From a candidate division FCPU426 bacterium (GTDB lineage: Bacteria > Oederibacteriota > Muellerivitia > Muellerivitales > Muellerivitaceae), in the NCBI GenBank assembly GCA_003136635.1, contig PLFD01000054.1, forward strand, positions 1-55,698: a stretch of DNA of 55,698 bases, written 5' to 3'. The position numbers and the translations under genes were made by a program. Shown here one piece after another: positions 3,702 to 38,445 of the stretch (positions are counted from its first letter, which is position 1; every line of letters starts with the position of its first letter). Below the pieces are notes generated by a model. It had not been told where the DNA came from. It made no database searches and saw nothing but the letters and a program-made list of their open reading frames with translations.

Positions 3702-4862
3702 ATGATTTATCTCGATAATGCCGCGACCACCCCTCTGGACGAAAAAGTATTTGAGGCGATGCTTCCTTACTTCAAACTCGAATACGGAAACCCCTCCAGT
3801 GTGCATGAGGCGGGCCGCCGAAGTCGGGCCGCGATTGATCAGGCACGGCAAACCATCGCGTCAACCCTTCACGCCAATCCTAAAGAAATTGTCTTTACCA
3901 GCGGCGGCACCGAAAGTGTCAACGCGGTCCACAAAGGTGTGGTGCTGGCCTCGACCCAAAAAATCAAACACATCATCACCTCCACTATTGAGCATCACTG
4001 CGTGGTGGATTGTCTGGAGTGGCTCAGACGTCAAGGCGTTCTCGTTACCCATATACGTCCCAATTCGGAAGGCTGGATTGATCCCAAAGATATTCAAAAG
4101 GCGATCCGGCCCGACGAGACGATTCTTGTCTCGGTCATGGCGGCAAATAACGAAGTGGGAACGATTGAACCCTTTGGCGAGATAGGGCGGATTGTCCGGG
4201 AACAGGGAATTCTTTTTCATACGGACGCGGTGCAGGCCTACGGCAAAATTCCCATTGATGTTCAAAAAGACCAAGTGGATTTTTTATCTGTGTCGGCCCA
4301 CAAAATTTACGGCCCCAAAGGGACCGGGTTTTTCTATCAGCGCCAGGGTGTTCCTTTGGTCCCGCTCGTTCATGGCGGCGGTCAAGAAAGGGATTTAAGG
4401 GGAGGCACTGAAAACGTGGCGGGCGTCGTGGGCATGGCCGAAGCGGCCAAGCGGATTTTTGAGCATTCCGCCGAAAGAGACCGTCTACGGAATTTGACGG
4501 ATGCTTTTTGGAAACAGCTCAAGTCGGTTTATCCGGATGTAAAGTTAAACGGACCGGAGGATTCCCAGAAACGAGTGCCTGGTCTGATCAACATTACTTT
4601 TCCAGGTATCGAGGGCGACCGGTTGGTTCAAAGTCTGGACGGTTTGGGTTTTGCCGTTTCTTCCGGCGCGGCCTGCGCGGCGGGCACGGCGCCGCCTTCT
4701 CATGTGTTAATGGCCATGGGCCGCAGTCCGGTCGAGGGCAAGCAGGGCTTGCGCATCAGCCTGGGCCATTTCACGACCGAGCCGGAACTTCAACAGTTCT
4801 TAAAAGCTTTAATCGGCGTGGTCACCAGACTCAAAAATCCTGCTTCCTTTTCTGACGATTAA
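3702..4862 (+). CDS. cysteine desulfurase (class V aminotransferase, NifS/IscS family)
   Basis: MIYLDNAATTPLD... N-terminus; PLP-lysine motif SVSAHKIYGPKG; catalytic Cys loop SSGAACAAG; 386 aa. Confidence 0.85.
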   Translation: MIYLDNAATTPLDEKVFEAMLPYFKLEYGNPSSVHEAGRRSRAAIDQARQTIASTLHANPKEIVFTSGGTESVNAVHKGVVLASTQKIKHIITSTIEHHCVVDCLEWLRRQGVLVTHIRPNSEGWIDPKDIQKAIRPDETILVSVMAANNEVGTIEPFGEIGRIVREQGILFHTDAVQAYGKIPIDVQKDQVDFLSVSAHKIYGPKGTGFFYQRQGVPLVPLVHGGGQERDLRGGTENVAGVVGMAEAAKRIFEHSAERDRLRNLTDAFWKQLKSVYPDVKLNGPEDSQKRVPGLINITFPGIEGDRLVQSLDGLGFAVSSGAACAAGTAPPSHVLMAMGRSPVEGKQGLRISLGHFTTEPELQQFLKALIGVVTRLKNPASFSDD

Positions 4863-12156: not shown

Positions 12157-12235
12157 GACGTAGCTAATTCATCGGAGGTTTTACCTCCGTAGGGTCGGCG
12201 AGTCTTTGTTGGGAACATAAACTAGTAACCAAAAA

Positions 12236-12268
12236 CCCTGCCTTCCAAAGGTGGGGTTTTTTGTTTTT
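12236..12268 (+). terminator. rho-independent terminator of nrdJ
   Basis: CCCTGCCTT/AAGGTGGGG hairpin followed by TTTTTTGTTTTT. Confidence 0.6.
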
Positions 12269-12366
12269 GAGAGGTTTTTTGACGCTCTTTAAGCTTTTTT
12301 TGAAAAAAAGTTCAAAAACGGCTTTTTTAAAGGAGAATTAGCTATAATTTATTGTATGACAATAAC

Positions 12367-12394
12367 TTGATATAAGTTTTTTACGTGTTATAAT
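12367..12394 (+). promoter_or_regulatory. near-consensus sigma70 promoter of the low-GC cassette
   Basis: TTGATA (12367-12372), 16-nt spacer, TATAAT (12389-12394), then AGGAG and the ATG at 12420. Confidence 0.45.
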
Positions 12395-12419
12395 AAAAGA
12401 ATCAAGTTTAGGAGAAAAT

Positions 12420-12974
12420 ATGATGGAAGAAAAAAAGCCTTACAAATTACGCATTAAAATCGGTCAAGCTGAATTTGAAGCCGAGGGCTCAGAAGAGACG
12501 GTCAAAGCTCAATTTAAAGAATTTCAGGATTTAATAGTTAAAAAGCCCAACCCATCAGAACAAAGAGAAAGTGTTTCAAACACTGAAAATATGGGTGATT
12601 CAGAGACCCAAAGGTTTGTTGAAGAATATGAAAGTATTTTCAAGATCAATGATGATAAAACTTTGAGTTTGAGAGTTTTACCTAGTGAAAATGATGGGAA
12701 ATTTAAACAAATAGCCGATTCTGCTCTTGTTCTTCTTTACGGTTTTAACAAGGTTTTTTCCCGGACCGATGTTACGGCTTTAACGCTTACTCGCGTTTTG
12801 CGGGAATCGGGAATAGGTGTGATAAAGCGTATTGATGTGCCACTTTCGCAGTATTTAAAAGATGGTTTTATAACGCGAGCTGGGAAGGGTAAGGGTACTT
12901 CTTATAGGACTTCGAATAAAGGAAATACCCAAGCAAATGCTTTGATACAAAAAATGATCGAGCATCTTTCTTAG
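12420..12974 (+). CDS. hypothetical protein with C-terminal winged-helix-like DNA-binding region (low-GC cassette gene 1)
   Basis: Strong SD; C-terminal ...LKDGFITRAGKGKGTSYR resembles the wing 'G.G+GT.Y' of wHTH domains; no other family recognisable; about 35% GC. Confidence 0.5.
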   Translation: MMEEKKPYKLRIKIGQAEFEAEGSEETVKAQFKEFQDLIVKKPNPSEQRESVSNTENMGDSETQRFVEEYESIFKINDDKTLSLRVLPSENDGKFKQIADSALVLLYGFNKVFSRTDVTALTLTRVLRESGIGVIKRIDVPLSQYLKDGFITRAGKGKGTSYRTSNKGNTQANALIQKMIEHLS

Positions 12975-13281
12975 AATTTTATGGAGAGTTAACTATGACA
13001 ACAGTGCAGGGCTAATTTGGTAGCCCAGGAACAGAAATGGGAGTGAACACCCGCCGGTAAGCTGAGTAATTCACTCCCATCCAATAGCCCCTAGACAGGG
13101 GATAAACTTCGTTCATTTTATCCCCCCAAACAAAAATTGCAAGAGATTGCTTAATTCCCCTTAATTAAAGAAAACCAATGGCACTTCTGTGCTATTTGCA
13201 GGTCTTTAAATATAGGGTTCTATTTGAGCCCTTTTGTTTATTAACTCTAATTATTAGCGCGTATCGCGCAGGGAGAAAACA

Positions 13282-14250
13282 ATGAAGAAAAATTTGCGTA
13301 AGATTCCAAAAGAAATTTTGGAAAAAATAAAAAAATCAAAAGCTGAAACTTTTGTTGCTGGATGTGCAGTTAAATTTTCGGGCGAAGATATTCGAAAAGG
13401 CACCCTAAGTCATTTAGGGATTGTTATGGGCACTGATGTACTACTGGTACCTGATCGGATTGTTCCGCCCGCTACTCAGGGTAAGAATTCGGCGATAAAC
13501 GTAAATGGGGAAGAAATAAGACGAGATGATCTTCCGAAAGAAACTCATTACACTCCAGTTGAAGCGCCTAATTGGGGAGATTCATACAATGGGACTCATA
13601 CCGTTTGGTTGCCGCATGAAGCGTACCCTCGTGAGTTTAATTCACCTAGGCTTTTGGAAATTTCGATGACTTGTGCAAATCCTCAACCTGACCAAAAAGA
13701 ATATTTAATCTCTTTCAGAGTTGAAGAAATTCTTGATATTAAACACAAGAATTTTCATAAGTGGTTATTGGAGGATTTAAATCTTCTTCAAGAAAATGTC
13801 GGTGCTTACGGGATTGAAGAAGCTGAAAAACCTATTGCTGAATATATAAATTCTTTAAATGTAACTTGGGACATTTTGCCTCCGGGTACAAAAGAAGAGG
13901 CCATAAGAAGGATATTTAGTGGCGCCGTACCAAAACAAAAACAAAGGGAAACGGCTGGAGAGCGTTATGATTTTTTTATGAGCCTAAAGCCTATCCGATT
14001 CGTTTTTGGGAAAAGTGGGTTTCGACGTTATTTTGGTGCCAAGATAGAGGAGAACCTCATTATCTTTGAGAATATGGAATATGGTAATGCAATTTATATT
14101 CTCTTTGATAAATGGGAGGAAATGAGTAAAAGGTCAAGACTGGAGTTGCTGTCAGGTAAGTTCGGCACAGACTTTTTCCGGGTTGTTCATAAAGACGGCT
14201 GGGAGGAAACAGTGCGAAGTTATATATCTGAAAAAAAGAAATCGGCATAA
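13282..14250 (+). CDS. hypothetical protein (low-GC cassette gene 2)
   Basis: 322-aa ORF with SD AGGGAG; no recognisable motif; AT-rich codon usage unlike the flanking genes. Confidence 0.5.
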   Translation: MKKNLRKIPKEILEKIKKSKAETFVAGCAVKFSGEDIRKGTLSHLGIVMGTDVLLVPDRIVPPATQGKNSAINVNGEEIRRDDLPKETHYTPVEAPNWGDSYNGTHTVWLPHEAYPREFNSPRLLEISMTCANPQPDQKEYLISFRVEEILDIKHKNFHKWLLEDLNLLQENVGAYGIEEAEKPIAEYINSLNVTWDILPPGTKEEAIRRIFSGAVPKQKQRETAGERYDFFMSLKPIRFVFGKSGFRRYFGAKIEENLIIFENMEYGNAIYILFDKWEEMSKRSRLELLSGKFGTDFFRVVHKDGWEETVRSYISEKKKSA

Positions 14251-14269
14251 TTTAAAACTGGTTGTAATA

Positions 14270-14302
14270 AAAAAATCCGGCTCTCAAGAGTCGGATTTTT
14301 TT
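14270..14302. terminator. bidirectional rho-independent terminator between cassette gene 2 and the convergent SDR gene
   Basis: AAAAAAATCCGGCTCTcaagAGTCGGATTTTTTT: A-tract, imperfect 9-bp stem, T-tract. Confidence 0.5.
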
Positions 14303-14328
14303 ATTGTCATGAAAACCACGCATCTTTC

Positions 14329-15225
14329 CTATATTCGTTTCGAGAAATACTCCAAATGCTTCGCGATTTCGGGGGAGGCCGCAAAATCCAGGCCGAACTC
14401 TTTTTTAATTAGGCTCATGTCAAACAGCATGGGTTTGGCATCCCAGCCCTTGTCTTCCACCACAATCTTGCTCTTAGAACCCGTCATCTCAATCGCTTTG
14501 TGAGCTACTTTTTCCCAGGTCACAAACTCACTGGACAGGCCGAAGAAAATGCGGCGGTTCAGGTTGCTGTTTAAAACGGCGCTGTACAACTTCGCCAGAT
14601 CGCCGGCCCAGATGAACTGGGTGCCGTCGTGCTTTGTGACGGTGATGGGTTCATTCTTTTTTGCCGCGGCGACAATCTGGCTGAAACGTTTATCAGGCTG
14701 GGTGACTCCGTCGGTGAAAGCGGGATTGCCGAAGGTGTAGCCAGGGCGGATGATGTTGCAACGCATGCGCGCTTTGGCGGCGAAGCCCAAGAGATAAGCC
14801 TCGGAAGCGGCCTTGGTGGCGCCGTAAAGGTCCACCGGCCGCAGATCGATGCTTTCATTCATGAGCGGGCGAAATTCACCTACCGCCGCCGTGGAGGAGG
14901 TGTATAGAAACTGCTTCACACCGGCCCCCTCCGCCGCTTCCAGCAAAAAGGCGGTGACCGCCGTGTCGTTTTGAAGCATGGTGGTGGGGGTTTCACCCCA
15001 GCCCAGGGCGATATGCACGCAGGCGTCGCAGCCTTGAAGGGCCTTTTCGATAACCGGCTGGTCGTAAATCGTGCCTTCCACAAGTTCAACGCCCGGCATG
15101 GTTTTCAGCGAGGGGATTTTGCCCGTATTGCGGATTAAAAGCCGCAGGGAATGGCCCTGGGCCAAAAGCTCTTTGACCACCCAATGCCCGATAAAGCCGC
15201 TGCCGCCGGTTAAAAATACTTTCAT
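14329..15225 (-). CDS. NAD-dependent epimerase/dehydratase family protein (extended SDR)
   Basis: MKVFLTGGSGFIGHWVV Rossmann motif (start moved to this ATG at 15225, with AGGCGG upstream); SDR-like YxxxK region. Confidence 0.7.
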   Translation of the reverse strand: MKVFLTGGSGFIGHWVVKELLAQGHSLRLLIRNTGKIPSLKTMPGVELVEGTIYDQPVIEKALQGCDACVHIALGWGETPTTMLQNDTAVTAFLLEAAEGAGVKQFLYTSSTAAVGEFRPLMNESIDLRPVDLYGATKAASEAYLLGFAAKARMRCNIIRPGYTFGNPAFTDGVTQPDKRFSQIVAAAKKNEPITVTKHDGTQFIWAGDLAKLYSAVLNSNLNRRIFFGLSSEFVTWEKVAHKAIEMTGSKSKIVVEDKGWDAKPMLFDMSLIKKEFGLDFAASPEIAKHLEYFSKRI

Positions 15226-15436
15226 GGATATTCCGCCTTTTTGGATTTTCGTTTGATTCAAACCAGCGTAGTTTAGTGCGGCTTTTAAACGCTTCGGGAA
15301 CAAAAAGTGGTTTCGGGCCAATTTTCCCAAGCCATAGGTTGTAACCTTTAGCTTGTTTTACTTAATGAAAGTCTCGAGTATTATTTATTCACTTAGATAG
15401 ATGTCTGGCATTTTCTAACTACGGAGCGCCAAAACC

Positions 15437-15937
15437 ATGAATGAATGGACGGATTTTCTAGTAGCGTCGTCGGGCGCGTCGGCGGCCTTGTTGGGCCTTT
15501 TGTTTGTGGCGCTGGCCATCAACCTCAAAAAAATCCTTTCCGTCCCGCTTTTGCCTGGCCGGGCCTTCGCGGCCATGCTTTTACCGGCGACGATGCTGGT
15601 GGTTTCCCTCTGCGCGCTGGTGCCGGGGCTTAATCCAAATACTTTGGGGTGGGTAACCTTTCTGCCGGGCGTGCTGGACTGGATATTCGGCATGAAGGGT
15701 TATTGGGCCAGTTTTAAATATTTTCGTTCGAATAAAAAGAAATTGGCGATACCCTTTTATTATTTTTTCCTGCGGTTCTCGCTGGTACAGCTGGGCACAT
15801 TGCCCTATCTGGTTGCGGGAATTCTGTTCTGGACCAACAATTCCTCCGCCCCCTATTGGCTGGTGCCGGCTTTTCTCTTTTCAATCCTGACCGCCCTTTA
15901 CGACACCTGGGTTCTTTTGATTGAGATCAACCGGTAG
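15437..15937 (+). CDS. hypothetical integral membrane protein (4 TM)
   Basis: Four hydrophobic helices; no motif. Confidence 0.4.
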   Translation: MNEWTDFLVASSGASAALLGLLFVALAINLKKILSVPLLPGRAFAAMLLPATMLVVSLCALVPGLNPNTLGWVTFLPGVLDWIFGMKGYWASFKYFRSNKKKLAIPFYYFFLRFSLVQLGTLPYLVAGILFWTNNSSAPYWLVPAFLFSILTALYDTWVLLIEINR

Positions 15938-15955
15938 GGTTTAAAAAAGGGTAAG

Positions 15956-16180
15956 TTAGCGGCTATGAGCTGTTTGAACCTTGGCGAGTTTAATTAATGA
16001 GCGGAGAGCCTGATTGACGGATTCGGCATTGTTGAAGGCTTTGGCCACCTCCGCATCCAAATGGACGAGATTGGTAGTCGCCTTATTCGCGTCCCAATCG
16101 AAAACAAGAGCCAATTTATCCGCCTTTAAAAAAGCCGTGATGATGGTTTGAAACTGCCAGGACAAACCAGGCAATCCCAA
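15956..16180 (-). CDS. small orphan ORF with ribbon-helix-helix (ParD/CopG)-like C-terminus
   Basis: ...VHLDAEVAKAFNNAESVNQALRSLIKL resembles RHH antitoxin/regulator cores; no partner toxin gene adjacent; start uncertain. Confidence 0.2.
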   Translation of the reverse strand: MGLPGLSWQFQTIITAFLKADKLALVFDWDANKATTNLVHLDAEVAKAFNNAESVNQALRSLIKLAKVQTAHSR

Positions 16181-16321
16181 GTATTATCAATTAAATCAAG
16201 ACGGGCAAGCGACGCGGGACTATGGCTTTTCCGTTTGGTCCGCGATAAAAAAACCTATCTTGCTATCAATTTCAATACGGCTTTATTGTATCCAAATTAA
16301 ATTTGTTGTAAGAGGTGCTTC

Positions 16322-17482: not shown

Positions 17483-17527
17483 CAGTCATATCAAATTGAT
17501 ATGAAAATTCTCGATTTGATATGACTG
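17483..17527. promoter_or_regulatory. perfect 14-bp inverted repeat with 17-bp spacer upstream of the lpxL-like gene
   Basis: CAGTCATATCAAAT (17483-17496) ...17 nt... ATTTGATATGACTG (17514-17527), about 160 nt upstream of the ATG. Confidence 0.4.
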
Positions 17528-17686
17528 TCACTAAATAAATTTTTCAACCCGTTTTAAGGCCAATTAAAAAGCCATTTTCCGTAGTTGGGATTGTAGTGAT
17601 GAGGGAATGTTTCTTGCTTTCATTTTGAGCGAGCCGGTTTTTTAAAAAAAACTCGGCGACGTTCAAAAAAAGTGAGAGACATTGAA

Positions 17687-18637
17687 ATGAAGAGACCTCT
17701 TCGGAAAATTAAAAACGATCTCATCTATTACGGTTCCAGAACCCTTATTTTTTTAATCGGGTTTTTGTCGTACGAGCAGGCAGGGCGGTTGGGCCGGATA
17801 TTTGGAGTTGCCATTTTCAATTTGGCCGGTGGTGAGCGCCGCAATACGCTTCACAGCATTCGAACCGCCTATCCGTCAGGTTTAAGCGATGAAGAAGTAG
17901 AGCAATTGGGAATGCGGGTTTGGGAAGGGCTGGGGCGAAACCTGTTTGAGGTGGTCCGGTGGATGAACATGCCCCGCCAAACGGTCGTCTCCCAAATCGC
18001 GCAAGTGGAAGGCTGGGAACATCTGGAAAACGCGATCAACCGGGGCAAGGGCGTTTTTTTGGTGACCGGGCATCTGGGAAACTGGGAATTGCTGGGGGCC
18101 TATCTGGCCTCGCGGCATCCCACTTCGGCTGTGGCCAAAGCTGTTTATGATCCCCGCTTTGATACGCTGATCACTTCGCTTCGCACGGAAAAGCTCAAGG
18201 CCACTATGATCAAGCGGGGCATGGCGCTTCGGGGCATTATTGAGGCGCTGCGTCAGAACCACGTCATCCTGATGCTATGCGACCAGGACACGGGTAAGGA
18301 TGGGGTTTTTGTGCCGTTTTTTGAAAAGCTGGCCTGGACCCAATCGGGCGTGGCCCGCATTGCCCAAAGGCGCGGGGCGGCCATTGTGCCGGCGTTCGCG
18401 GTTCGGGGTGAAGATCACCAGTTTAAAATTCAGGTGGAAAAGGAAATCCAAATTCCGGTTACCCATGACCCCGAAGCGGATGTGCTGGAAACGGTGAACC
18501 GCTACACCCGGGTAATCGAAACTTATGTGAAAACCTATCCCAATCAATGGATGTGGATGCACCGCCGGTGGAAGACCAGGCCTGAAATAGAGGCAGTTTC
18601 TACAAGGGGTCAGAAAGAGTTCGCGGGCATCAATTAA
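17687..18637 (+). CDS. lipid A biosynthesis lauroyl/myristoyl acyltransferase (LpxL/HtrB family)
   Basis: KGVFLVTGHLGNWELLGAYLA, the HtrB/MsbB catalytic H-box, and overall about 310-aa architecture. Start at the ATG at 17687, which follows GAGAG. Confidence 0.7.
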   Translation: MKRPLRKIKNDLIYYGSRTLIFLIGFLSYEQAGRLGRIFGVAIFNLAGGERRNTLHSIRTAYPSGLSDEEVEQLGMRVWEGLGRNLFEVVRWMNMPRQTVVSQIAQVEGWEHLENAINRGKGVFLVTGHLGNWELLGAYLASRHPTSAVAKAVYDPRFDTLITSLRTEKLKATMIKRGMALRGIIEALRQNHVILMLCDQDTGKDGVFVPFFEKLAWTQSGVARIAQRRGAAIVPAFAVRGEDHQFKIQVEKEIQIPVTHDPEADVLETVNRYTRVIETYVKTYPNQWMWMHRRWKTRPEIEAVSTRGQKEFAGIN

Positions 18638-18779
18638 GTGAAAATGGGGTTACGCTGGACTTCCCCTGATTTAGTGGACACCCAGTAGTTCGACATAACC
18701 GCCATCTCCCCTATGCCTAGGGTATCCAGGATAGGTGGAAAGCTACAAAACCGCACCCTAAGGGGCGCTTAAACCAAAC

Positions 18780-19037
18780 TATGTCAGTAGCCTATTCGGC
18801 CATGTCAGTAATAAATCGGGCATATTTCAGTAGGAAACCGGCAAATGATACCGAGAATTCGCGAAATGATACCGAAGAACCGGATGAATGATACCGAGAA
18901 AACCCGAGATGCTACTAGGTAATCGGGTCAATGCTACCGAGGAATTGATCCAATGATACCGAGAATTTCCGAAATGATACCGAAGAACCGGGCTAATGAT
19001 ACCGAGAAATTCCCCAATGCTATCGAGGAACCGGTCG
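18780..19037. repeat. array of about 12 contiguous 21-22-bp direct repeats (two related families)
   Basis: Nine units with core AATGATACCGAG(A/G)A..., each 21-22 nt, at 18844-19037. They are preceded by 3 units of (c)ATGTCAGTA...CGGC at 18780-18843. The arrangement has higher-order structure (A B A' D E / A B A E). Confidence 0.7.
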
Positions 19038-19104
19038 TCTTCACCGAAAATTGACTATTCCGGGAGTAGGACCGGTCATGCCGATTGAACCTATCCCTTA
19101 ACCC

Positions 19105-20481
19105 TTAAAACCGGCCCAATTCCCAGCGCAAGGCCGACCCCAGGTCGGGGTAAAGAAACTCAAAGCCTTCCCGGGTCAAGCAGGCCGGGGTGACCCTCTG
19201 GCCTTCCAGTAAAAGCGCCTCGCCCATTTCGCCGAATAAAAGCTTTACCATGAAACCCGGAAGAGGGAAAAAAGTCGGTCTTTTTAAAACCTTGCCCAAA
19301 ATCTTGGTAAAGTCCCGGTTGGTCACCGATCCCGGCGCGGTGGCGTTGACCGGGCCTGACAAGGCAGGGCTGTGGATGGCGTAGTTGAAAATGCCGACCA
19401 GGTCTTCCAGCGTTATCCAGCTCATCCACTGCCGGCCTGTGCCGATAACGCCGCCGGCGCCCATCAGGGTGGGCAAAACCATTTTGGGCAAAGCCCCGCC
19501 GTTGGCTGAAAGCACAATGCCGGTGCGCAGATGGACCACTCGAATACCCGCCTTTTTCGCCGGTTCAGATGCCTCTTCCCAGGCCTGGCAGACTTCAGTC
19601 AAAAAGCCCTTTCCTGCCGGGCTGTCCTCGGTCAAAATTTCATCCTCCCGGTCGCCATAAAACCCAATCGCCGAGGAGGTGATAAAAACCTTGGGCGGAT
19701 TTTTAAGCGAGGCCAGAGTTTCAGCCAAAAACTTTGTTCCGGCAATCCGGCTTTCCCTAATCCGCTTCTTGCGCCCGGGAGTCCAGCGGCCCGCCCCGAT
19801 GTTCTCGCCGGCCAGATGAATGACCACGTCGGCGTTTTCCAGGGAGTTGGGATCAATTTCGCCCTTGTCCGGGTTCCAGAATATATCACTGCCTTTCGGC
19901 TGGCGCCGTACCAGCGCGCGCACTTCGTGACAGCCGCCGGTTAAAAACCGCGTCAGGGCGGTGCCGATCATTCCCGAAGCGCCGCTGATGATAATTTTCA
20001 ACGGACCTTTTGAGGCAAGGGGCAAAAGGCGCTTCAAATCATGCTGGGTTCTGGTGTGGCGGAAATTAAAAGTTCTTTTGAGTTTCGAGGCGATAAAGCC
20101 TCCGGCCACAATGTCGCCAAATGCGCCCAGGGGCGCCTGGTATTCCACCTGATCGGTTAGTTGACTGGTTTTTTCCGTGATGGGTTGAAACTGATGGCTA
20201 TGAATCCACTTGGCGAAAGGGCCTTCGACCTGGGTGTCGCGAAATAGTTTTCCTTCAATAAAGCCGCTGTGTACGACCACCCAGCGGATAGGCCAAAACC
20301 ACTGTTTCATTCGCAGAACCAGGCGGCTTCCATCCGTGATACCGCCCTGTTTTTCCAAAACCTCAATCTTCTCCCAGGGAGGGGTCAGGCGTTCAAAAGC
20401 ATGAGGGCATTGATGCCAGGCAAAAAGCTCTTCTACCGGCGCTTCCACAACGGATGTTTTTTCAAATAGGGACATTTTCAC
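19105..20481 (-). CDS. SRPBCC-domain / TIGR01777 (YfcH-like) NAD-dependent epimerase fusion protein
   Basis: N-terminal roughly 140-aa polyketide-cyclase/SRPBCC-like region; central KIIISGASGMIGTALTRFL Rossmann motif; C-terminal DUF1731-like tail. Confidence 0.6.
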   Translation of the reverse strand: MKMSLFEKTSVVEAPVEELFAWHQCPHAFERLTPPWEKIEVLEKQGGITDGSRLVLRMKQWFWPIRWVVVHSGFIEGKLFRDTQVEGPFAKWIHSHQFQPITEKTSQLTDQVEYQAPLGAFGDIVAGGFIASKLKRTFNFRHTRTQHDLKRLLPLASKGPLKIIISGASGMIGTALTRFLTGGCHEVRALVRRQPKGSDIFWNPDKGEIDPNSLENADVVIHLAGENIGAGRWTPGRKKRIRESRIAGTKFLAETLASLKNPPKVFITSSAIGFYGDREDEILTEDSPAGKGFLTEVCQAWEEASEPAKKAGIRVVHLRTGIVLSANGGALPKMVLPTLMGAGGVIGTGRQWMSWITLEDLVGIFNYAIHSPALSGPVNATAPGSVTNRDFTKILGKVLKRPTFFPLPGFMVKLLFGEMGEALLLEGQRVTPACLTREGFEFLYPDLGSALRWELGRF

Positions 20482-20753
20482 CTCAGGGAGCGGTTTTCTG
20501 TCTTTGAGTCTAAGGAGCCGGCTGTTTTATTGATATGACATCGGTCAATGTTTCCAGAAAACCGAGTTAATTTCGCTAGGGAAACCGGTTGATGCCAATG
20601 AGAAAGCGACCTATTTCGGTGGAAATGCCTTATGCCAGTGGATAAAAACGAGTTGCCGGTAACAGGGTTAGAATTGGGCGGGTTATATTAAAGGCGATAG
20701 TTGATCGGTTCGAGTCCAACTCGGGGAGCCATATTTAGGAAGGACCCTAAAAT

Positions 20754-30988: not shown

Positions 30989-31159
30989 AAGACCCTCGCC
31001 ATGGTTGCTGGAAACTTCGCCGTATTTTATCGGCTGACCGCAAAAAATGCTTTGGTTTATCCAATTTTTATGGGTTTGGAGAGAGGGGAAACCCCGGTTG
31101 GGGTTTTCTTGAAACAAAGCGGGTAATGCCGTAAGATTTTGAGGTCGATTACTATTTAT

Positions 31160-31213
31160 TGGTGATGGAGTTCGCCAGAACCGTTCCCCCTGAGGGAGCT
31201 AATGACTCCTACC
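31160..31213 (+). ncRNA. fluoride riboswitch (crcB RNA motif)
   Basis: GGUGAUGGAGUUCGCCAGAACCGUUCCCCCUGAGGGAGCUAAUGACUCCUAC matches the crcB-motif consensus (GGnGAUGGnGUUCGCC...AAcCG...GCUgAUGAnUCCUAC), directly upstream of crcB. Confidence 0.85.
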
Positions 31214-31241
31214 GGCCAGGCTGGTAGGAGTTTTTTGTTTT
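31205..31241 (+). terminator. riboswitch expression-platform terminator
   Basis: CTCCTACC...GGTAGGAG hairpin overlapping the aptamer 3' end, followed by TTTTTTGTTTT. Confidence 0.6.
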
Positions 31242-38238: not shown

Positions 38239-38445
38239 ATGAAGCGTTTTATCGTCGCTGTGTTGGCTGTGTTGTTTGTTGGAACTGGTGTTTCTATGGC
38301 GCAAGATGCTACGACCGCTGCTCCGGCTGCTGCTGCTCCGGCTGCTGCGACCACCCCGGTTGCCAAAGCTAAGAAGCACAAGAAGCATAAGAAGGCTATG
38401 GCTGCTGCTCCGGCTGCCGCTGCTACTACTCCTGCTGCCAAGTAA
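38239..38445 (+). CDS. small secreted Ala/Thr/Lys-rich low-complexity protein
   Basis: Consensus SD AAGGAGG 7 nt upstream; signal peptide MKRFIVAVLAVLFVGTGVSMA; mature about 47 aa of AAPAAA/KKHKKHKK repeats; followed by two terminators. Confidence 0.5.
   Translation: MKRFIVAVLAVLFVGTGVSMAQDATTAAPAAAAPAAATTPVAKAKKHKKHKKAMAAAPAAAATTPAAK

Follow-up and report, generated by a model that had tools for sequence, protein, structure and literature searches.

What, if anything, reads a phased array of short direct repeats that lies between the 3' ends of two convergent genes? The question is raised by a 55,698-nucleotide stretch of DNA (referred to below as the window) from a candidate division FCPU426 bacterium (GenBank assembly GCA_003136635.1, contig PLFD01000054.1, positions 1 to 55,698), in which 12 contiguous head-to-tail units of 21 to 22 bp occupy positions 18780 to 19038. 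On balance, we favor the answer that this array is an orphan, phased, multisite DNA platform for a membrane-anchored ParB-type protein that is encoded elsewhere in the genome. We do so because the array contains the exact core of another array, type B, that stands in front of a gene for a 668-amino-acid (aa) protein, because the array in front of the gene for a 57% identical homologue has a core that is one base off, and because contigs with the window's own array (type A) and with type B arrays co-occur.

The 12 units were found by inspection of the sequence at the place where the preliminary description of this DNA had put an array of contiguous 21- to 22-bp direct repeats, and their ATG starts are spaced 21 or 22 bp apart, with no other values. 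The array is made up as follows.

18845 to 19038, plus strand: main array of nine contiguous 21- to 22-bp units, each with the core (A)ATGATACCGAG and then a weaker R-A-W-T-Y
18780 to 18844, plus strand: three diverged units in register with the main array, ATGTCAGTAG, ATGTCAGTAA, and ATTTCAGTAG
18844 to 19022, plus strand: higher-order duplication, in which the block 18844 to 18914 (extending to 18951) is repeated at 18952 to 19022

The nine units of the main array have the core form ATG(A/C)TACCGA(G/A), with ATG starts at 18845, 18866, 18888, 18909, 18931, 18953, 18974, 18996, and 19017 and spacings tallied as 21, 22, or 43 bp; the unit at 18909 is degenerate (ATGCTACTAGG). Read on the minus strand the core is CTCGGTATCAT, the orientation found in the arrays that we call home arrays below. 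The three diverged units, which had also been described as lying upstream of nine core units, have ATG starts at 18780, 18801, and 18823 (spacing of 21 and 22 bp) and the motif ATGTCAGTA or ATTTCAGTA, which on the minus strand reads (C)TACTGACAT, (T)TACTGACAT, and (C)TACTGAAAT. The higher-order pattern seen earlier in the alternating variants proved to be a duplication with an offset of 108 bp, or five units, and 86% identity between the copies. Tandem Repeats Finder (TRF) reported periods of 21, 22, 43, and 65 in the array, with scores of up to 151. The core 11-mer occurs eight times inside the array at two or fewer mismatches, and its only matches elsewhere in the window have two mismatches and are at chance level. 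The core, AATGATACCGAG, has no dyad symmetry, and each unit probably represents one asymmetric site of 12 to 17 bp, (A)ATGATACCGAG-RAWTY. An average period of 21.5 bp is about two helical turns, so that the sites would lie on nearly one face of the DNA.

Two trivial identities could be set aside at this stage, as the preliminary description had already done. The conserved part of each unit is 12 bp long and is followed by a variable tail of about 10 bp, there are no spacers of the kind found in clustered regularly interspaced short palindromic repeats (CRISPR), and the Pfam scans gave no cas-like domains, so a CRISPR array was rejected. The array has stops in all six frames and is not covered by any open reading frame (ORF) of at least 40 aa; the 33-aa ORF that some annotation pipelines call inside it is spurious.

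The pattern of conservation shows constraint on the cores and not on the spacers. Information content was calculated from an alignment of 26 units from three array types, the window's own and the two further types introduced below. The 12 core positions, (A)ATGATACCGAG, carry 1.2 to 1.8 bits each, the five positions after the core (R-A-W-T-Y) carry 0.5 to 0.85 bits, and the remaining spacer positions carry 0.1 to 0.3 bits. In the two copies of the 108-bp block, compared over three unit pairs, the cores show 0 differences in 36 positions and the spacers show 9 in 28 (Fisher p=2.5e-4). Identical cores beside spacers that have diverged by about 30% since the block was duplicated require that the cores were under selection once the array had reached this form. 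A similar disparity separates array types B and C, with 4 of 84 core positions and 23 of 70 spacer positions different (p=4e-6). Although the spacers are scrambled, the spacing is 21, 22, 42, or 43 bp in every array, with a mean period of 21.5 to 21.75 bp, which bears out the earlier remark that the period is about two helical turns.

The window array is also stable between strains. The intergenic region is 467 bp long in all 11 independent assemblies, which come from different samples, and no array substitution and no copy-number polymorphism was seen among them. The array varies at a single site: at 18784, within the first diverged unit, strain assemblies L043 and L012 lack 1 bp, and the contig of L012 ends about 20 bp from there. 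The intergenic flanks outside the array vary among the 11 assemblies; the array has one variable site in 258 bp versus about 3.8 expected, a difference that is not significant by itself with 11 strains. Since the length is the same in 11 independent assemblies, the array is neither a copy-number-variable minisatellite nor an assembly artifact, and we rejected the latter, which the preliminary description had raised as an alternative.

We scanned for the core in a collection of species-representative genomes, in which the window's own genome is absent, and in metagenome contigs of the Joint Genome Institute (JGI). The species-representative collection gave five matches to a two-core pattern, equal to chance expectation, and these were coding repeats of the NDTE type or unrelated short repeats. 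The JGI scan gave 27 loci, 10 of which are arrays with the window's core and period, all from peat or bog samples. They fall into three types.

L012, L026, and L036: type A, the window's own array
L020, L021, L028, and L033: type B, with another genomic context and other spacers
L011, L025, and L032: type C, with context and spacers different again

Types B and C place the core at two further, nonsyntenic loci in related peat-bog contigs, with spacers unrelated to those of the window. The preliminary description had counted confinement of the motif to this place among the signs of a neutral minisatellite; the motif is not so confined, since related organisms have it in arrays elsewhere. Homology between types B and C is limited to about 250 bp, comprising the array and a 60-bp segment with a promoter-like TTGAAA-N18-T(A/G)CAAT on the strand antisense to ATGATACCGAG. 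A flanking gene shared by B and C was considered and rejected: the 399-aa ORF next to the array in type C proved spurious, what is actually encoded there, by a convergent gene on the opposite strand to that ORF, is an outer-membrane-type β-barrel protein, and no flanking gene is common to the two types. A search for mobile-element ends around the modules gave just weak inverted repeats of 16 to 17 nucleotides with about 75% complementarity. Two metagenome samples, Ga0302155 and Ga0302281, contain both type A and type B contigs, and the two types have the exact core in common, which six of the window's units retain. Tetranucleotide similarity did not separate species within the clade and so provided no evidence that types A and B share a genome.

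Other arrays of similar period came to light. A relative with 81% identity (JGI 3300025862 / GCA_900291805.1) has a different array with a 21-bp period (L007 7235-7500, also L008 7254-7438), consisting of 13 units that alternate between CCCGTTGAATCTTGG... and TCCGTTGAATRTTCC... and are 98% regular at period 84. Its core is CCGTTGAAT, and it lies 200 bp upstream of ompH, between that gene and the NAD-epimerase orthologue. This position is approximately syntenic with that of the window array, and the 13 units could be an orphan array of another specificity. In addition, AT-rich, unrelated contigs contain intergenic tandem arrays of 20- to 21-bp units that happen to include ATG(A/C)TACCGA, for example, ATGATACCGAAATAAATTGGA and ATGCTACCGAATGTGCTGAA (L029 ~4090-4290, L014 ~1241-1416 as the reverse complement, L037 ~202-430, and L023 ~820-1000; L029 looks like Bacteroidota). 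These may be chance pattern matches or may belong to a wider class of approximately 21-bp arrays.

The type B locus suggests what might read the core. There, a sigma-70-like promoter, TTGAAA-18-TACAAT, points through the array into the 668-aa ORF, which starts 75 bp past the last unit. Three loci that encode homologues of this protein, with 57, 53, and 49% identity, are laid out as in type B, with a promoter, about 35 bp, the units, and then a Shine-Dalgarno sequence and ATG. The homologue promoters (L048, L049, and L050) are likewise sigma-70-like, with an 18-bp spacer and 10 to 11 of 12 consensus matches. The arrays related to that of the window hold seven to nine units, and the core is conserved in each unit. 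In L048 the nine units, of 21 to 22 bp, are contiguous, whereas in L049 and L050 a set of four units stands on either side of a 42-bp gap. On the gene-sense strand, the cores are the following.

Type B: CTCGGTATCAT
L048: CTCGGTAACAT / CTCGGTGACAT
L049: CCCACTGGCAT
L050: CCTATTGGCAT

The core belonging to the 57% homologue differs from the type B core by one base. Within each home array the units share the core of their lineage, and the spacers are mutually unlike. Recombinational homogenization would also have equalized the spacers, and for this reason a coevolving reader is favored over it. A reader whose specificity has shifted with each lineage is the simpler account of these sequences, and the product of the linked gene would be the obvious candidate. 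Between the type B array and its gene we also observed an inverted pair of the core's TACCGA half, TCGGTA-CTA-TACCGA (L021 359-373), which also scored as terminator-like, and a second hairpin (L021 367-404) that overlaps the Shine-Dalgarno sequence. A second ORF of 646 aa in L048 was considered as a paralogue of the presumed binder and rejected, its sequence being unrelated.

Searches of Pfam and of PDB sequences with the 668-aa protein and its family profile returned nothing useful. In public data, a word-indexed search turned up about 50 homologues, and an exhaustive one gave 392 representatives. One homologue, P0280, has a recognition helix that closely resembles that of the 668-aa protein (P0256). 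A profile of the N-terminal 140 residues of the family aligned with residues 112 to 223 of Bacillus subtilis Spo0J, its helix-turn-helix (HTH) DNA-binding domain, with an hhalign probability of 84% and an E value of 7e-6; the match was treated as a lead that needed a second test. The AlphaFold model of the N-terminal domain has a mean confidence score (pLDDT) of 86, and its best fold matches in the PDB were nearly all with DNA-binding domains of the ParB family, namely Spo0J-parS, Thermus thermophilus Spo0J, Noc, KorB-operator, Caulobacter ParB, and SopB-DNA, with the top TM-score, 0.55, for Noc (7ng0) and with the KorB-operator structures 1r71 and 8qa9 also matched. The N-terminal 130 or so residues (HTH at 8 to 131) are thus predicted to form a DNA-binding domain of the ParB/KorB/SopB type, one that is recognized solely through profile-sequence alignment and fold. 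The array-linked members start at this HTH domain and have no ParB_N (CTPase) domain, and more distant members of the family have an additional N-terminal ParB_N with a GxxRxxA box. Neither of the two ParB_N-bearing paralogues that we examined has an upstream array, and one of them is in an integrase/RadC island. Next to the ParB_N-bearing paralogue P0290 (L054 6296-8900, GCA_003163255.1) are a RadC gene, a split integrase of the phage type, and a fragment that resembles a tRNA, a setting that points to an integrated element; an array-linked paralogue, P0272 (L050), is found in this assembly too.

The rest of the 668-aa protein points to the membrane. One strongly hydrophobic transmembrane helix is predicted at residues 308 to 326, preceded by a Lys-rich segment, and the C-terminal region resembles PH-like folds and PDZ folds of the HtrA/DegS type, the only matches that Foldseek gave with the full-length model. 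The predicted topology places the DNA reader in the cytoplasm and the C-terminal domain outside it, with an anchor in the membrane between them. No gene for a ParA/SopA-type ATPase was found among the called genes or Pfam matches around any array. A full-text literature search for the core found primers and unrelated sequences only, and keyword searches for membrane-anchored ParB-like proteins with repeats found no description of the 668-aa family or of the arrays. The earlier suggestion of phased protein-binding sites, in a form that recalls partition proteins, is substantially supported, in that arrays of the same design stand in front of ParB-type HTH genes with cores that track the protein lineage.

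The surroundings of the window array differ from those of the home arrays, and the following features bear on its interpretation.

17672 to 18637, plus strand: lipid A late acyltransferase (Lip_A_acyltrans), likely true start at 17687, converging on the array
19105 to 20481, minus strand: SRPBCC and NAD-epimerase fusion (TIGR01777 type), 3' end facing the array
18753 to 18768, minus strand: terminator-like hairpin, GCGCCC-CTTA-GGGTGC followed by GGTTTTGTAG, 12 bp past the last diverged unit
19030 to 19076, no strand assigned: imperfect inverted repeat of 19 bp that overlaps the last unit and lies between the array and the SRPBCC-epimerase stop codon
19045 to 19095, minus strand: segment that aligns with the type B/C promoter, a degenerate TTCAAT ... 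AATAGTCAAT compared with TTGAAA-N18-TACAAT

The position between convergent 3' ends, at 18637 (plus strand) and 19105 (minus strand), agrees with the preliminary description. A promoter scan found no sigma-70-like promoter at the window array, and the segment at 19045 to 19095 is probably, by its alignment, a vestigial promoter. The hairpin at 18753 to 18768 would end a minus-strand transcript after it had crossed the whole array, which is only suggestive, as the chance rate of the terminator scan is high (2.2 expected in the region). The inverted repeat at 19030 to 19076 is 74% complementary and forms a stable hairpin in the minus-strand fold, with no U-run after it. Relatives of the acyltransferase with 87 to 88% identity lie in other contexts without an array, and relatives of the SRPBCC-epimerase with 81 to 82% identity have cNMP (cyclic nucleotide)-binding genes where the window has the array and the acyltransferase; the window array was not found at the orthologous position in either set. 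The acyltransferase appears to be accessory and mobile, since its closest relative (87% identity; L038 4310-5405) immediately follows a pair of IS3-type transposase genes and a PIN toxin module. According to Pfam, the window's genes are otherwise housekeeping in character, including a class II ribonucleotide reductase, PGI, IlvD, DapF, a GH57 branching enzyme, and an extracytoplasmic function (ECF) sigma/anti-sigma pair. Cumulative GC skew rises monotonically across the window, with no inflection.

Several other features of the window were recorded. A perfect 14-bp inverted repeat, CAGTCATATCAAAT / ATTTGATATGACTG, with its arms 17 nucleotides apart and with a nested palindrome, lies at 17483 to 17527 in a 414-bp gene-free gap upstream of the acyltransferase gene. 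Two strain assemblies have about 975 bp extra at window positions ~20723 to 20734 (L036 7949-8924; L012 4247-5222), between the SRPBCC-epimerase and NYN-domain genes, which the window does not have. Strain L026 matches the window at 97 to 99% on both sides of 12160 to 14344 and 15256 to 16309 and has no match within them, so these segments are strain variable; their ORFs had no Pfam matches. Rfam at the gathering score gave, for the whole window, a fluoride riboswitch (crcB motif) only, located away from the array at 31152 to 31218 on the plus strand (48.7 bits versus a gathering score of 34). A cluster of short GCT-rich trinucleotide repeats and 9- to 15-bp tandem repeats was found by TRF between two genes at 38257 to 38438.

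We infer from the home loci that the 668-aa protein binds the core. The reader would then be a single-pass membrane protein with an N-terminal cytoplasmic HTH, a transmembrane helix, and PH-like and PDZ domains outside the membrane and without the ParB CTPase. Because a home array stands between the promoter and the start codon of the reader's own gene, binding to it would hold transcription down, making the gene autoregulated. As to the effect of binding at the window locus, the candidates are docking, roadblock, and titration: many proteins side by side could dock this stretch of the chromosome at the membrane, the bound proteins could form a roadblock between the two convergent genes, or the array could titrate the protein, that is, hold a share of it.

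A number of observations weigh against the orphan-platform reading. The co-occurrence and the identical core suggest that the window organism may encode a protein of the 668-aa family, and no family member is present in the 55.7 kb of the window. The canonical ParB-type HTH reads palindromes as dimers, and the sites here are asymmetric and head to tail. Foldseek E values for the N-terminal domain are weak (0.05 to 1), although the list of matches is coherent. The window array lies between two 3' ends without a recognizable promoter, and 4 of its 12 units are degenerate (the fourth unit and the three diverged ones), which fits partial decay. Linked inheritance alone makes an upstream element track the phylogeny of its gene, so the argument from covariation hinges on the spacers not having been homogenized. 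Two strain variants of type B differ by substitutions at six sites of the 205-bp promoter-plus-array region, two of them in cores, against 0 differences in the 2-kb gene (L021 46-250 versus L033/L020/L028), and over 7 kb of flank they are set apart only by a single indel and a small cluster of differences; this shows locally fast evolution or recombination of the promoter-plus-array region. The six differences imply either that single sites are expendable and not strictly constrained or that the region evolves fast. Finally, the home arrays are downstream of a predicted promoter and hence are probably transcribed, which opens the way to a reading at the level of RNA.

Four other explanations were weighed against the orphan platform, and the most serious of them, though we consider it unlikely, is that the array is a relic: a functional promoter-array module, orphaned by rearrangement, perhaps when the mobile acyltransferase arrived, that is now a functionless, slowly decaying minisatellite. 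The degeneracy of the promoter-equivalent segment and of one-third of the units is what such a history would leave, as is a neighborhood that varies between relatives, with the acyltransferase elsewhere, once next to an IS3 transposase, and the array absent from relatives with 81 to 88% identity; the low count of variable sites among the 11 strains, not significant alone, is compatible with it as well. What speaks for continued function is that the cores stayed identical while the spacers diverged after the 108-bp duplication (p=2.5e-4), a pattern that needs selection, that the copy number is constant in the 11 assemblies, and that six units still have the exact home core. An RNA-level element is a little less probable still. 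It would be a minus-strand transcript repeating CUCGGUAUCAUU, present either as a long 3' untranslated region on the mRNA for the SRPBCC-epimerase or as a small RNA of its own, that acts as a largely unstructured multisite RNA to bind or titrate an RNA-binding protein or a complementary RNA, with the home loci providing a regulatory 5' leader. Home arrays are expected in the transcript from their place between predicted promoter and start codon, promoter and array form one conserved module in types B and C, and both the window and type B have a terminator-like hairpin past the array on the same strand, the high chance rate of the terminator scan reducing the value of this last point. The type B leader folds better than shuffled sequences (z=-4.1), but two other home leaders have no excess structure (z=+0.90 and -0.54), and neither strand of the window array has a folding advantage over shuffles (z=+1.06 and -0.70). 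Rfam gave no match in the region even at E<=10, the window copy has no recognizable promoter, the strict spacing of 21 to 22 nucleotides or its double has no evident RNA rationale, and the linked gene product has, by its model, a DNA-binding fold. Of the noncoding RNA proposed in the preliminary description, the structured form is not supported by the Rfam and folding results, and an unstructured repeat RNA is what is left of the idea.

The two explanations that remain are far less probable than these. An iteron-type origin or incompatibility locus, or the ParABS centromere of a plasmid or secondary replicon, is very improbable in spite of an anatomy that recalls iterons, with contiguous direct repeats of about 22 bp, about 17 bp of each conserved and a short part variable, in 8 to 12 copies, and in spite of the descent of the linked protein family from ParB. 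No Rep, ParA, or other replicon gene is near any array, the window's genes are housekeeping ones, cumulative GC skew is monotonic, a distant-mode search of 72,556 plasmids and 50,697 phages gave no match, and the array-linked proteins have no ParB_N CTPase domain. For these reasons the earlier proposal of an iteron-like replication element was abandoned. A decayed coding repeat, in which AAT-GAT-ACC-GAG would stand for N-D-T-E in a linker of the low-complexity type, is hardly credible. The genome-collection scan did find the same 12-mer within coding NDTE-type repeats of unrelated organisms, but here the alternation of 21 and 22 bp breaks every frame, six frames contain stops, the core recurs in noncoding arrays between promoter and ATG, and conservation follows the nucleotide core and not the codon position.

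If the pairing of the ParB-type reader with these arrays is true, it would be a new use of the ParB DNA-binding module, in which the CTPase is lost and the module is membrane anchored and joined to an extracytoplasmic PDZ domain, and what is read would be long, phased arrays of asymmetric sites and not the palindromic parS. The tethering of defined chromosomal loci to the membrane would gain a natural example, and orthogonal protein/site pairs would be on offer, with at least four cores in four lineages. For annotation, it would explain a class of 21- to 22-bp intergenic arrays in uncultured peat-bog bacteria that are otherwise filed as minisatellites, spurious small ORFs, or CRISPR-like repeats. 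The orphan arrays adjoin envelope genes, a lipid A acyltransferase in the window, a β-barrel gene at type C, and possibly ompH in the relative, though three cases are no more than a hint. A bolder proposal, which we put forward tentatively and hold to be rather unlikely, is an undescribed transmembrane system in which a periplasmic PDZ sensor is wired to a ParB-type reader that coats 8 to 12 phased sites, pulls loci (its own gene and the orphan arrays at envelope genes) to the membrane, and gates transcription, with its specificity retuned in each lineage.

Several known systems resemble these arrays in part. The centromere of the F plasmid, sopC, consists of 12 tandem 43-bp repeats, is of type Ia, and has a 16-bp inverted repeat in each unit. 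Like it, the present arrays are tandem arrays of specific sites, here presumably also read by a ParB-family HTH domain, in about a dozen copies beside the gene of the binder, here at the home locus; SopB(155-272)-DNA is among the best fold matches of the N-terminal domain, and the window array has, according to TRF, a higher-order period of 43 bp. In contrast to sopC, the units in the window are asymmetric with a period of 21 to 22 bp, and the home array is between promoter and start codon. SopB has ParB_N and the ATPase partner SopA and is soluble and plasmid borne, whereas the array-linked proteins have neither, and the 668-aa protein has a transmembrane helix and PDZ domain and is chromosomal. 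More generally, compared with ParB-parS and SopB-sopC, a ParB-type HTH gene is beside the sites at type B and at the three homologue loci, but no homologue is in the window.

Noc, which retains the CTP-binding ParB_N and has an N-terminal amphipathic helix, uses single palindromic 14-bp sites scattered on the chromosome. It is similar in combining a ParB-type HTH with membrane association and in having chromosomal sites away from its own gene, and it differs in being without arrays, a transmembrane segment, or an extracytoplasmic domain. The KorB operators (OB) of RK2 are single 13-bp palindromes, and KorB, a soluble transcriptional repressor with a ParB_N domain, has KorA and IncC as partners; the resemblance here is the use of a ParB-type HTH for promoter control, together with the KorB-operator structures among the fold matches. 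ToxR and CadC are built as the 668-aa protein is predicted to be, with DNA binding by an N-terminal domain in the cytoplasm, a single transmembrane helix, and a sensor-like domain outside the cytoplasm, and ToxR also acts at head-to-tail direct repeats at promoters, the tandem TTTTGAT of the ctx promoter. Their DNA-binding domain is a winged helix of the OmpR type, whereas the fold and profile matches here are to the ParB family and not to OmpR/PhoB, and their sites are few copies of 7-bp units as opposed to 8 to 12 copies of 21 to 22 bp.

The iterons of the R6K gamma origin (seven of 22 bp) and the ParR-parC systems resemble the present arrays in their contiguous, asymmetric repeats with a conserved core and a variable tail, in a repeat length near two helical turns, and in cores that are specific to the cognate protein, and parC resembles them also in that the home array is in the promoter region of the binder's own gene. 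They are different in that no Rep (winged helix), no ParR (ribbon-helix-helix), no origin features, and no replicon context are found here. Like CsrB and RsmZ, the arrays contain many copies of a short motif in about 300 nucleotides and may be transcribed, but they have no units with GGA in a hairpin loop (GGA is present in just 3 of the 12 window units), no excess structure, no Rfam match, and a rigid spacing. LytTR proteins bind 9-bp direct repeats 12 to 13 bp apart, a period of 21 to 22 bp, with the consensus [TA][AC][CA]GTTN[AG][TG]; the period agrees with ours, but the core ATGATACCGAG / CTCGGTATCAT does not fit that consensus. Because the sites are asymmetric, the linked proteins have neither ParB_N nor a ParA partner, and the fold is not that of OmpR, the system is not a sopC, parC, ToxR/CadC, or Noc member. 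Compared in this way, the array appears to belong to none of the known systems and to come closest in design to a site array of the sopC or parC type or to an operator array of the ParB family.

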